A stretch of DNA of 64,000 nt from Gammaproteobacteria bacterium (GTDB taxonomy: Bacteria > Pseudomonadota > Gammaproteobacteria > SZUA-229): assembly GCA_026195895.1 (NCBI GenBank), contig JAPHRO010000033.1:6739-70738 (forward strand), given 5' to 3'. This document shows, in pieces, positions 18,612 through 20,027 of the stretch. How positions within the stretch are numbered: the first letter of the stretch is position 1; every line of letters begins with the position of its first letter. The position numbers and the translations under genes are program-made. The notes under the pieces are model-generated. The model saw only the letters and a program-made list of their open reading frames with translations. It was not told the DNA's origin and made no database searches.

Positions 18612-19772
18612 TTAGAGTCCAGCCGCATCTTTCAATGCTGCGGCTTTATCTGTTTTTTCCCAGGTGAAATCAGCTTCTTCACGGCCGAAGTGACCATAGG
18701 CTGCCGTGTTACGATAAATTGGTCGCAACAGGTCCAGCATCTGGGTCAGGCCTTTGGGTTTAAGGTCGAAGTGTTCACGCACCAGTTCAACTATGCGTGC
18801 ATCATCAATTTTGCCGGTACCAAAGGTTTCCACCGAAATTGAAGTGGGTTCAGCGACACCAATGGCGTAGGACACCTGGATTTCACATTTGTCGGCCAGG
18901 CCTGCAGCAACAATGTTCTTGGCCACATAACGACCGGCATAAGCGGCGGAACGATCTACTTTGGAAGGGTCTTTGCCGGAGAACGCACCACCACCATGAC
19001 GGGCCATGCCGCCATAGGTATCAACAATGATTTTTCGGCCAGTCAGACCGCAGTCACCGACCGGGCCACCAATAACAAAGTTGCCGGTAGGGTTAATAAA
19101 GTATTTGGTGTCTTTGCTAATCCATTCTTTGGGCAGTACCGGCGTGATGATTTCATCCATTACCGCCTCGCGCAACGCTTCCAGCGAAATATCAGGATTA
19201 TGCTGGGTAGATAGTACCACGGCATCAATAGCCGTAGGCTGGCCATCTTCATAACGGAAAGTGACCTGGCTTTTCGCATCGGGACGTAACCAGGGCAGCG
19301 TACCGTTCTTGCGGACTTCTGCCTGGCGTTTAACCAGTTTATGCGCATAAGTAATGGGTGCCGGCATCAGTACATCGGTTTCGTTGCTGGCATAGCCAAA
19401 CATCAGGCCCTGGTCGCCCGCGCCCTGTTCATGGTCTGAGGATTCGTCGACGCCCATGGCAATATCTGCAGACTGCTTGTCGATGGAGGTAATAACCGCA
19501 CAGGATTCCCAGTCGAAGCCCATTTCAGAGCTGTTGTAGCCAATTTCTTTAACGGTTTTACGTACGATCTCCTGCATATCCACCCAGGCAGATGTAGTGA
19601 TTTCGCCGGAGAGGATAACCATGCCCGTGTTAACCAGTGTTTCACAGGCAACGCGTGCTTTATTGTCCTGTTCGAAAATGGCGTCCAGGATGGCATCGGA
19701 AATCTGGTCCGCGACTTTATCTGGATGACCTTCAGAAACCGATTCAGATGTAAATAAATGGCTATTTGACAT
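18612..19772 (-). CDS. metK: S-adenosylmethionine synthetase
   Basis: [34 protein letters not shown] and [17 protein letters not shown] 10 nt before the ATG at 19772. Confidence 0.98.
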
Positions 19773-19804
19773 GGTATAAATTTCCTCGTTGCTATCGTTA
19801 ACGA

Positions 19805-19897
19805 TTAGCAAATACGCTGTGTATTAAATGTATCAGGATGAGGAGGATCGCTGTTCATGGCAGTTGGTATGCCAGAAGATTTCAGATCTACGCTCAT
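19805..19897 (-). CDS. Putative 30-aa leader ORF between the SAH riboswitch and metK
   Basis: ATG at 19897 to TAA at 19805 gives [30 protein letters not shown]. The start-codon region is complementary to the riboswitch 3' strand. RBS is weak and translation is unproven. Confidence 0.4.
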
Positions 19898-19924
19898 TCT
19901 TTAGCTTTGCTAGAGACTAATAAA

Positions 19925-19990
19925 TGAGCGCCGTTCGTATATAGATGCACCGAGCCTGACAGAGAAATCTGCTGCAGCGCCCCTCAGTGC
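19925..19990 (-). ncRNA. SAH riboswitch (metK leader)
   Basis: Minus strand GCACTGAG-GGGCGC-TGCAG-CAGA tttc TCTG-TCAGG-CTCGGTGC...AACG-GCGCTC has the same core as the ahcY copy, with compensatory changes in P1 and P2. Confidence 0.88.
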
Positions 19991-19998
19991 GGAGGAAG

Positions 19999-20027
19999 AT
20001 TATAGACGAAATGTTTTGAAATGGCTA
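19999..20027 (-). promoter_or_regulatory. Sigma70-type promoter for the metK leader
   Basis: Minus strand TAGCCA-17 nt-TATAAT; the predicted transcription start falls just 5' of riboswitch P1. Confidence 0.65.

Follow-up and report, generated by a model that had tools for sequence, protein, structure and literature searches.

An SAH riboswitch ahead of metK

The window (by which we mean the whole 64,000-nucleotide stretch of gammaproteobacterial DNA that was analyzed) contains metK, the gene for SAM synthetase, and ahcY, the gene for SAH hydrolase, with ahcY located 3' of metK in the same orientation. An SAH aptamer lies upstream of metK, which is the first gene to follow it in the window, and a second SAH aptamer precedes ahcY. 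(All leader coordinates are given on the minus strand.) The genes, and the elements at the head of the leader, are as follows.

17080..18489, minus strand: ahcY (SAH hydrolase), 469 aa
18522..18588, minus strand: second SAH aptamer, before ahcY, 62 bits
18612..19772, minus strand: metK (SAM synthetase), 386 aa
19772, minus strand: metK start ATG, about 150 nt past the aptamer
19919..19991, minus strand: SAH riboswitch aptamer, Rfam RF01057, 60 bits
19989..19983 with 19954..19948, minus strand: aptamer helix P1 (folding model)
19972..19968 with 19963..19959, minus strand: aptamer helix P2 (folding model)
19982..19977, minus strand: presumed pseudoknot 5' strand, GGGCGC (from the sequence and the literature)
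19999..20027, minus strand: sigma-70-like promoter, TAGCCA-17-TATAAT, 10/12 positions matching

An earlier reading of the sequence, referred to here as the first-pass annotation, had placed an SAH aptamer at 19990-19925 behind a sigma70-like promoter. The covariance-model search returned RF01057 at 19991..19919, where the full model (1-78) is matched with a score of 60 bits, compared to a gathering score of 37, and an E value of 1.5e-08. Both of the conserved strands, GAGG(G/A)GCGCUGCA and GGCGCUCA, are present in the window aptamer and are able to form the pseudoknot. In SAH riboswitches the 3' tail is said, in work by Wang in 2008 and Edwards in 2010, to form a pseudoknot with a strand of the internal loop. 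Read from the sequence, GGGCGC at 19982..19977 could form six pairs, one of them G-U, with GCGCUC at 19931..19926, and we take these to be the two pseudoknot strands, an assignment that leans partly on the literature. Judged by its sequence, the S-adenosylhomocysteine riboswitch ahead of metK is genuine; we infer that the metK leader responds to SAH and that it does so with ON logic. The promoter, when taken alone, is not above chance in the window (1 site found compared to 2.9 in shuffled sequences). Among relatives, however, TATAAT is found 8-9 nt 5' of P1 in all 24 leaders, and the -35 position reads TAGCCA in 13 of the 23 leaders in which it is readable. The transcript is predicted to start 1-2 nt ahead of P1.

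The comparison set for this and what follows comprises 24 related metK leaders from 10 genera. They come from a scan of 97 genomes of the family (the order-level scan covered the same 97 genomes), which gave 100 SAH matches, 24 of them ahead of metK, in 10 of 19 genera; the aptamers of these metK-type leaders score 48-66 bits. A second, direct switch before ahcY is kept in 10 of the 24 genomes with a metK-type leader. In the other 14 the metK-type copy is the sole SAH switch, and ahcY directly follows metK in 13 of these 14. Thus, in 24 genomes of an uncultured gammaproteobacterial family an SAH riboswitch stands ahead of metK, frequently as the sole copy serving a metK-ahcY operon.

The first-pass annotation had put the start of metK about 150 nt from the aptamer, and the sequence agrees, so any control of metK must be indirect, acting across that distance. 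A search of 18400-20200 yielded zero terminator-like sites, so no GC-rich hairpin with a U run behind it was found downstream of the aptamer. We also entertained the idea that the metK platform holds a degenerate second aptamer or another known RNA; this was rejected, as there is no Rfam match at E<=10 in the leader region 19740-19930.

A switching strand with two partners

The region between the aptamer and metK can be described in terms of four short strands, A to D, together with the helices that they form.

19923..19931, minus strand: strand A, GCGCUCAUU, the 3' pseudoknot strand and the partner of strand B without ligand (sequence and folding model)
19891..19898, minus strand: strand B, AAUGAGCG, the switching strand, which pairs with A or C; AUG at 19897..19895
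19838..19846, minus strand: strand C, CCUCCUCAU, with CUCAU for strand B and UCCUC as predicted metK Shine-Dalgarno mask (alignment and folding)
19844..19840, minus strand: UCCUC within strand C, complement of GAGGA
19783..19787, minus strand: strand D, the metK Shine-Dalgarno sequence GAGGA; -5.9 kcal/mol with the anti-Shine-Dalgarno sequence, similar in 24/24 leaders
19838..19897, minus strand: B:C hairpin, ligand-bound state (folding model and relatives)
19897..19893 with 19842..19838, minus strand: B:C base helix, AUGAG with CUCAU (folding model)
19888..19885 with 19849..19846, minus strand: B:C second helix, GAUC with GAUC (folding model)
19874..19870 with 19862..19858, minus strand: B:C third helix, UGGCA with UGCCA (folding model)
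19789..19811, minus strand: hairpin immediately 5' of the metK ribosome site, holding the ORF stop; in both modelled states
19805..19897, minus strand: 30-codon ORF, judged incidental; ATG 19897, stop 19807..19805

That CGCUCAUU pairs with AAUGAGCG had been proposed in the first-pass annotation. In the window this pairing is perfect, CGCTCATT at 19930..19923 and AATGAGCG at 19898..19891 being exact complements, and the folding model extends it to a helix of 10 pairs plus an upper helix of 5 pairs. All five pairs of the A:B core are retained in 24/24 relatives, and the A, U and G of strand B are invariant in the 24 leaders. (Note that MAFFT and RNAalifold applied to the whole platform recovered nothing beyond the five core pairs of A:B, as the variable parts were misaligned.)

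Strand B is also conserved as one side of a second structure, a hairpin formed with strand C. The CTCA of strand C is invariant or nearly so in the alignment, CUCA(U) lying 35-65 nt downstream of AUGAG, and in the minimum-energy folds of 23/24 leaders the C motif is paired to at least four of the five bases of AUGAG (mean -11.6 kcal/mol). For the B:C hairpin the alignment was fitted to the structure by a covariance model, which left 20 leaders, as 4 of the 24 had no match at E<=1. In this 20-leader alignment 86.1% of cells are paired, compared to 31-48% when the partners are slid, and double-sided changes are found at 6 pairs, in 16 cells; the covariation score of 0.191, compared to 0.135 in shuffled alignments, was reached by 0 of 500 shuffles. 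The B:C hairpin is conserved with compensatory changes. The A:B helix, on the one hand, and the pseudoknot together with the B:C hairpin, on the other, are mutually exclusive, and they link the aptamer to the platform.

Folding models point to a further partner for strand C. The first-pass annotation had remarked on the complementarity of UCCUC to the GAGGA of metK, and in the window folding model this turns out to be the masking helix: when strand A is blocked, the UCCUC:GAGGA helix is replaced by AUGAG:CUCAU, and the mean probability that GAGGA is unpaired rises from 0.05 to 0.65 (per base, from 0.01-0.13 to 0.41-0.86). Note that the modelled bound state consists only of a blocked strand, because both the pseudoknot and the ligand lie outside the folding model. 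When strand A alone was blocked and P1 kept in each of the 24 leaders, the expected number of C:B pairs rose from 0.69 to 5.31 while that of C:D pairs fell from 2.73 to 0.08. The mean unpaired probability of the Shine-Dalgarno sequence went from 0.16 to 0.35, rising by at least 0.2 in 10/24 leaders and falling by at least 0.2 in 0/24, and the energy needed to open it went from 3.91 to 2.86 kcal/mol, being more than 0.5 lower in 12/24 leaders, higher in 4/24 and unchanged in 8. With the whole aptamer blocked, the region from Shine-Dalgarno sequence to AUG took only slightly less energy to open, 4.41 instead of 5.29 kcal/mol (lower in 12/24 leaders, higher in 4/24). The C:D duplex averages -7.6 kcal/mol, compared to -6.2 with shuffled C (mean z -0.7). 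Masking of D by C is predicted for only about half of the relatives and is weak outside some lineages. An unconstrained fold of 20000..19760 offered UUCCUC, 5' of the aptamer, as a different partner for the metK Shine-Dalgarno sequence; we rejected this helix because UUCCUC lies between the -10 box and P1, is mostly untranscribed and is unconserved.

The leader ORF

A 30-codon ORF that opens at the AUG of strand B had been noted in the first-pass annotation and is present (ATG 19897 to stop 19807..19805), as is the hairpin at 19811..19789 that was said to abut the metK ribosome-binding site and that contains the ORF stop; relatives have a hairpin at the matching place, with differing sequences. 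When the leaders are aligned, the conservation of the ORF holds for its start and fails for the rest: the AUG is invariant in 24/24, whereas the ORF that follows it varies between 8 and 60 codons, and its stop, counted from the metK ATG, falls anywhere between -116 and +90. In 11/24 leaders the ORF ends more than 50 nt short of metK, and in 2 leaders it overlaps or fuses with metK. Control frame +2 gives a similar spread of lengths in the same leaders, 2-69 codons, and the ORF peptides are unrelated within genera, as in the pairs of leaders from genera g4 and g10. By anti-Shine-Dalgarno duplex energy, a Shine-Dalgarno sequence is absent at the leader AUG in 24/24 leaders (median 0.0, best -3.2 kcal/mol, compared to -5.9 for metK and -2.0 at random positions). 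The AUG is paired in both modelled states of the window RNA, and in the equilibrium model of the ligand-bound state its unpaired probability exceeds 0.5 in 1/24 leaders.

Most likely, then, the "leader gene" is a strand for RNA pairing in which an AUG happens to occur; this AUG is invariant because of the three-way pairing constraint with A and C. Support for this comes from the ahcY-type leaders (n=21), in which the direct partner of strand A is AGGAGAUGAGC and/or CAUGAGCGC, so that AUGAG partners A even where it is not the start codon. The first-pass annotation had offered, as a fallback, that the ORF is the remnant of a deleted gene; taken as a remnant of the start of another gene, this fits: the same AUGAGCGC makes up the ahcY start region in the ahcY-type leaders of the family. 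Strand B probably descends from the Shine-Dalgarno and start region of an ahcY-type SAH riboswitch, the ribosome site having decayed. The leader cautions that an AUG may be conserved downstream of a riboswitch without marking a gene.

A candidate RNA-only relay and its alternatives

We propose, at roughly even chances, that the SAH aptamer turns metK on through a four-strand relay made of RNA only, which heads the metK(-ahcY) transcript and in which the leader ORF is incidental. The strands of this relay would be A (GCGCUCAUU), B (AAUGAGCG), C (CCUCCUCAU, 50 nt beyond B) and D (GAGGA). Without SAH, A would pair with B, leaving C free, and UCCUC would mask D, with poor translation of metK as the outcome. 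With SAH, A would be locked in the pseudoknot and B would pair with the CUCAU of C to form the base of the three-helix hairpin; formation of B:C would release D and metK would be translated. In genomes without a second switch, ahcY would be translated together with metK.

The relay that the first-pass annotation had favored, in which SAH frees the leader AUG and translation of the short ORF gives access to the metK ribosome site or prevents Rho from acting on the leader, accounts for the invariance of the AUG and for the ORF of 8 or more codons behind it in every one of the 24 leaders. It can also draw on the cost of opening the AUG, which falls from 12.1 to 7.2 kcal/mol when the aptamer is blocked and is lower in 23/24 leaders, on the 10/24 leaders whose stop, 20-35 nt ahead of the metK ATG, falls close to the hairpin and Shine-Dalgarno sequence, and on the roughly 45-55 nt transcribed between B and C, during which a freed AUG would be single-stranded. 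Nevertheless, ORF length and stop are spread as in control frame +2, the peptides are unrelated within genera, a Shine-Dalgarno sequence is absent in all 24 leaders, and in the ligand-bound state the AUG is predicted to be paired again with a conserved, covarying partner. Given the invariant AUG and the ORF in every leader, translation as such may occur, but we consider it a distinctly unlikely basis for the switch. A variant, that the AUG is both pairing triplet and start, with ribosomes loading independently of a Shine-Dalgarno sequence before C exists and thereby keeping B and C apart or Rho off, strikes us as very unlikely; if true, such a dual-role AUG would make the leader a riboswitch-to-uORF relay on SAM synthetase in which the act of translation matters and the peptide does not. 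Rho might act without any leader peptide. Riboswitches of other classes place Rho under their control, among them the Mg2+ leader of mgtA and the FMN leader of ribB in enterobacteria, and here a C-rich stretch past B, strand C included, would be single-stranded and load Rho when SAH is absent and would be hidden by B:C when SAH is present; Rho, once loaded, would end transcription upstream of metK or inside it. Between B and the Shine-Dalgarno sequence the leader has 24% C and 16% G, the C/G ratio is 1.55 and lies above 1.15 in 24/24 leaders (for comparison, the transcribed strand of the window as a whole has a ratio of 1.18), an intrinsic terminator was not found in 18400-20200, and the exchange of A:B for B:C is well supported. 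Yet the skew is modest, helices 2 and 3 hold most of the stretch whichever state is modelled, and elsewhere in the family the ahcY-type switches work directly on Shine-Dalgarno sequence and start. Rho control of this sort is, in our view, unlikely.

There are two further alternatives. In one, the 3' strand of P1 acts as the anti-Shine-Dalgarno strand: once the aptamer unfolds, CUCGGUGCA would pair with UGCACCGAG, a stretch that adjoins and overlaps the metK Shine-Dalgarno sequence, and B:C would do no more than stabilize the bound state. Between 6 and 9 of the 10 positions can pair in all 24 leaders (mean 8.2), the helix is seen in unconstrained minimum-energy folds of several relatives, and when forced it is more stable than forced P1 in 10/24 leaders. 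Its covariation, however, is not above what conservation gives (permuting the partners among genomes yields 8.05, with 127 of 2000 permutations giving at least the observed mean), the forced helix is on average 1.7 kcal/mol less stable than P1, and the pairing must span about 170 nt; in the window 7 of 10 pairs form, with an internal mismatch, and the helix is 3.3 kcal/mol less stable than P1. We hold this reading to be very doubtful. In the other, the long platform has ceased to regulate metK and is decaying as a relic, and the riboswitch is a duplicate left over from the ahcY switch. By eye, B resembles the Shine-Dalgarno and start element of ahcY-type leaders with the Shine-Dalgarno sequence lost, and 10/24 genomes retain the second, direct switch before ahcY. 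Against this, promoter, aptamer, A:B, CUCA and B:C have been kept across 10 genera despite the divergence of the sequence between these elements, and 14 genomes have the metK-type copy, before metK-ahcY, as their sole SAH switch, so that a relic seems highly improbable.

Relation to known systems

The metK leader shares with the SAH riboswitch class RF01057 a match to the full model, a position in the 5' leader of SAM-cycle genes and an expected ON logic. It differs in that the first gene is metK and in that the ribosome site does not adjoin the aptamer, being about 150 nt away. In the report by Weinberg et al. 2007 (PMC1950547) the genes associated with the SAH motif are ahcY, metH and metF, and "metK" occurs 0 times. 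According to Leyn et al. 2014 (PMC4239095), who covered about 200 proteobacterial genomes, metK is not under the control of SAH riboswitches, a statement that an SAH riboswitch before metK contradicts (note that Table S2 of the survey might list rare cases). The same survey describes the core regulon of SahR, in which SAH activates metK together with ahcY, metH and metF (Leyn et al. 2014, PMC4239095), and to that extent the physiological logic of SAH raising SAM synthetase is established. SahR is an SAH-responsive protein repressor that acts on DNA, whereas the metK leader would be an RNA switch; SAH riboswitches ahead of metK across the family suggest that SAH-activated SAM synthesis, known for SahR, also exists in RNA form.

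The family's own ahcY-type SAH riboswitches, among them the one at 18588..18522, share with the metK leader its aptamer, its 3' strand GCGCUCAUU and a partner with AUGAG(C/U)GC. In the ahcY type this partner is a real Shine-Dalgarno sequence and/or start codon 30-40 nt past the aptamer, so that masking is direct; in the second aptamer of the window, for example, the direct partner of strand A is the ahcY start, GAUGAGUGC. In the metK type, by contrast, the partner has no Shine-Dalgarno sequence and is not a conserved start, and the signal would be passed on through a second alternative helix. The platform is unusual in being a conserved and structured candidate relay, about 150 nt long, that seemingly reuses the start of an older ahcY switch as a pairing strand, which makes the metK leader a useful case for the evolution of expression platforms.

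In the Mg2+ leader of Salmonella mgtA, with its mgtL, a short translated ORF controls Rho or downstream structure. Leaders of the mgtA/mgtL type resemble the metK leader in their order of sensor RNA, short ORF and distant structural gene, but their ORF is conserved and has a ribosome site, whereas that of the metK leader is variable in length, stop and peptide and lacks a Shine-Dalgarno sequence. An SAH-binding RNA switch ahead of metK is also found in Rhodobacterales, where the SAM/SAH riboswitch RF01727 is described as a SAM-type OFF switch that occludes the Shine-Dalgarno sequence directly (PMC2864571, PMC4239095); it belongs to another aptamer family, and its sequence is unrelated to that of the RF01057 leader described here.

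An SAH riboswitch ahead of metK in a family of Gammaproteobacteria

The metK riboswitch genuinely belongs to a known class but sits in a previously undescribed gene context, and its expression platform, the leader between aptamer and metK, is unusually long, conserved and structured. All of the elements that the first-pass annotation had listed (the aptamer, its complement, the ORF, the stop within a hairpin, GAGGA and UCCUC) were found in the sequence, as follows.

Elements of the dnaG, metK and ahcY gene string
21792..20038, minus, dnaG
20027..19999, minus, promoter-like site TAGCCA-17-TATAAT
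19991..19919, minus, SAH riboswitch aptamer (RF01057, 60 bits vs a gathering score of 37)
about 150 nt, minus, leader between aptamer and metK
19930..19923, minus, strand A (aptamer 3' pseudoknot strand), CGCTCATT, perfect complement of AATGAGCG
19898..19891, minus, strand B (AUG-bearing), AATGAGCG
ATG at 19897, end at 19805, minus, leader ORF of 30 codons
19844..19840, minus, UCCUC (in strand C, the downstream CUCAU/UCCUC strand)
19811..19789, minus, hairpin containing the leader-ORF stop
19787..19783, minus, GAGGA ahead of the metK ATG (strand D, the metK SD)
19772..18612, minus, metK
18588..18522, minus, second SAH aptamer, between metK and ahcY (62 bits)
18489..17080, minus, ahcY

The window's own genome contains just these two SAH aptamers (19991..19919 and 18588..18522), and a scan of 18400-20200 gave no intrinsic terminator-like site. 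Because the second lies between metK and ahcY, the two genes each have their own SAH switch within one gene string. In the second aptamer, the 3' strand GCGCUCAUU has the ahcY start, GAUGAGUGC, as its direct pairing partner.

In the genome collection used, the family coincides with its order (97 genomes, 19 genera). We sorted all RF01057 matches, 100 in total from 88 of the 97 genomes, by downstream gene. Seventy-one lie upstream of ahcY and 24, from 24 genomes in 10 genera, upstream of metK (metK-type); four directly follow metK, where ahcY is expected and the retrieved locus stopped, and one is at a contig end. Of the 24 metK-type genomes, 10 share the window's arrangement, with a further copy between metK and ahcY. 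The other 14 have the metK-type copy alone; ahcY is directly 3' of metK in 13 of these, and the contig of the remaining one ends within metK.

Full-text literature searches found no description of RF01057 ahead of metK; in Weinberg et al. 2007 (PMC1950547), the genes of the SAH motif are ahcY, metH and metF, and the word metK is absent. According to Leyn et al. 2014 (PMC4239095), a survey of about 200 proteobacterial genomes, metK is not under the control of SAH riboswitches. In a MAG labelled uncultured Thiothrix (L129:499-581), metK is also immediately preceded by an SAH aptamer (63 bits), and thus the association is not unique to the window's family. Its platform is ordinary and short, with AAGGAG and then the metK ATG about 30 nt past the aptamer.

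TATAAT lies 8-9 nt upstream of the first aptamer helix, P1, in all 24 metK-type leaders; therefore, the transcript begins with the aptamer. Note that the unusual -35 hexamer TAGCCA (window 19999-20027) is retained in 13 of 23 readable leaders, within a conserved ATTAGCCATTT stretch that may have a role beyond that of a -35 box, such as a protein site. A UUCCUC just upstream of the aptamer, which pairs with the metK SD in an unconstrained fold, was rejected as mostly untranscribed and not conserved.

Comparative evidence does not support a leader-ORF relay

The first-pass annotation had proposed that SAH permits translation of the leader ORF, which in turn controls metK. The leader AUG is invariant (24/24), and the comparison of the 24 leaders gives this relay no support. 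The ORF has 8, 9, 9, 12, 14, 14, 17, 17, 18, 20, 22, 23, 25, 27, 27, 30, 30, 31, 32, 32, 33, 35, 37 or 60 codons, the longest (L035:210-311, genome G103) running in frame into metK with no stop before it. Stop positions span from 116 nt before the metK ATG to 90 nt past it; 10 leaders have the stop, like the window, 20-35 nt ahead of metK. Control frame +2, read from the same point, has a comparable spread (2-69 codons), and frame +1 is immediately closed by the TGA within ATGAG. In genome G004 (L008) the leader-AUG frame extends over the metK start but is not in phase with it.

The peptides match only over RNA motifs (MS(A/V)D from AUGAGCG..GAU, and DPPH from GAUCCUCCUCAU) and are unrelated even within a genus, such as g4, in which MGLDLKSLRDCIV... 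and MGVDLNIQAKNHL... accompany MetK proteins that are 95% identical. None of the 24 leader AUGs has a Shine-Dalgarno sequence; the anti-SD duplex there has a median of 0.0 kcal/mol (best -3.2), compared with -5.9 kcal/mol at metK in all 24 and -2.0 at random window positions. The leader ORF may, as such, still be translated.

The AUGAG element has two mutually exclusive partners

AUGAG has two conserved, mutually exclusive partners, the aptamer 3' strand and a downstream CUCAU. Being held in two helices accounts for the invariance of the AUG without any coding role. The stretch 3' of the AUG is otherwise variable, but the CUCA(U) motif, 35-65 nt along it, shows little or no change. When the segment from AUG to CUCA(U) is folded to minimum energy, at least four of the five AUGAG bases pair with the motif in 23 of 24 leaders (mean -11.6 kcal/mol; mean z -2.0 vs mononucleotide shuffles). 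Beyond this helix, the structure continues with another helix and an apical hairpin of lineage-specific sequence, versions of the helices including GAUC:GAUC, GUGUC:GACAU, CAGG:CCUG and GAAUC:GGUUC.

A covariance model of this B:C hairpin, built from 10 leaders, recovers 20 of the 24 at E<=1. The resulting alignment of 20 leaders is fitted to the structure. Paired cells make up 86.1% of it, vs 31-48% with partners slid by 1-3 columns; both sides have changed in 6 of 15 pairs (16 cells), and the covariation score is 0.191, compared with 0.135 for shuffles (0/500 reach 0.191), whereas sliding the partners gives 0.059 at most. Searched against Rfam, the platform had no match at E<=10.

In 21 of the family's ahcY-type leaders, the same aptamer strand, GCGCUCAUUUCUU, has AGGAGAUGAGC and/or the ahcY start, CAUGAGCGC, as its direct partner. 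By visual comparison, the metK-type CUAAAGAAUGAGCG resembles the ahcY-type element minus GGAG.

Modelled passage of the signal to metK

Each leader was modelled with P1 enforced, the only variable being whether GCGCUC was available: free represents the unbound state and blocked the bound state. In the free window, the model gives A:B helices of 10 and 5 pairs and a UCCUC:GAGGA helix; in the blocked window, AUGAG:CUCAU, GAUC:GAUC and UGGCA:UGCCA form. The unpaired probability of the SD bases goes from 0.01-0.13 to 0.41-0.86, while that of the leader AUG is 0.00 free and 0.2, 0.05 and 0.0 per base blocked. Across the 24 modelled leaders, blocking raises expected C:B pairs from 0.69 to 5.31, lowers C:D pairs from 2.73 to 0.08, and raises mean SD unpaired probability from 0.16 to 0.35 (up by at least 0.2 in 10 leaders, down by as much in none). 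SD opening energy goes from 3.91 to 2.86 kcal/mol (more than 0.5 lower in 12/24, higher in 4/24), and the leader AUG exceeds 0.5 unpaired in one blocked leader of 24.

The best reading, which we hold to be about as probable as all others combined, is that the SAH signal would be passed by RNA alone through strand exchange, A:B giving way to B:C and C:D being released. The aptamer-proximal half of this relay is well supported; the SD-proximal half is only modelled. Masking of D by C is the weak point, predicted for the window and roughly half of its relatives and not demonstrated as a conserved helix. The UCCUC that had been picked out as a complement of GAGGA does form a helix in the modelled free window, but across leaders the best C:D duplex averages -7.6 kcal/mol vs -6.2 for shuffled C, a mean z of only -0.7.

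It is improbable that the 3' strand of P1 (CUCGGUGCA) acts instead as the anti-SD, through complementarity to UGCACCGAG adjoining the metK SD. Although 6-9 of 10 positions can pair in all 24 leaders (window 19946-19954 with 19785-19796), this is because those bases mimic the P1 5' strand GCAC(C/U)GAGG, and there is no covariation beyond conservation (observed 8.21, permutation mean 8.05, 127 of 2000 permutations reaching 8.21). Moreover, only 10 of the 24 leaders favour the forced alternative over forced P1, which in the window is better by 3.3 kcal/mol. Less probably than by strand exchange, the metK leader may instead be controlled through Rho, since the RNA beyond B is rich in C and poor in G (24% vs 16%), with a C/G ratio above 1.15 in all 24 leaders (1.18 for the whole strand).

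The hairpin before the metK SD (19789-19811) is a near-palindrome of the UGCUAAUCAUUAAUGAUUGCA type, found in the same place in relatives' loci L006, L007, L017 and L023. Its sequence is kept in several genera, other hairpins substitute for it elsewhere, and it forms in both modelled states.
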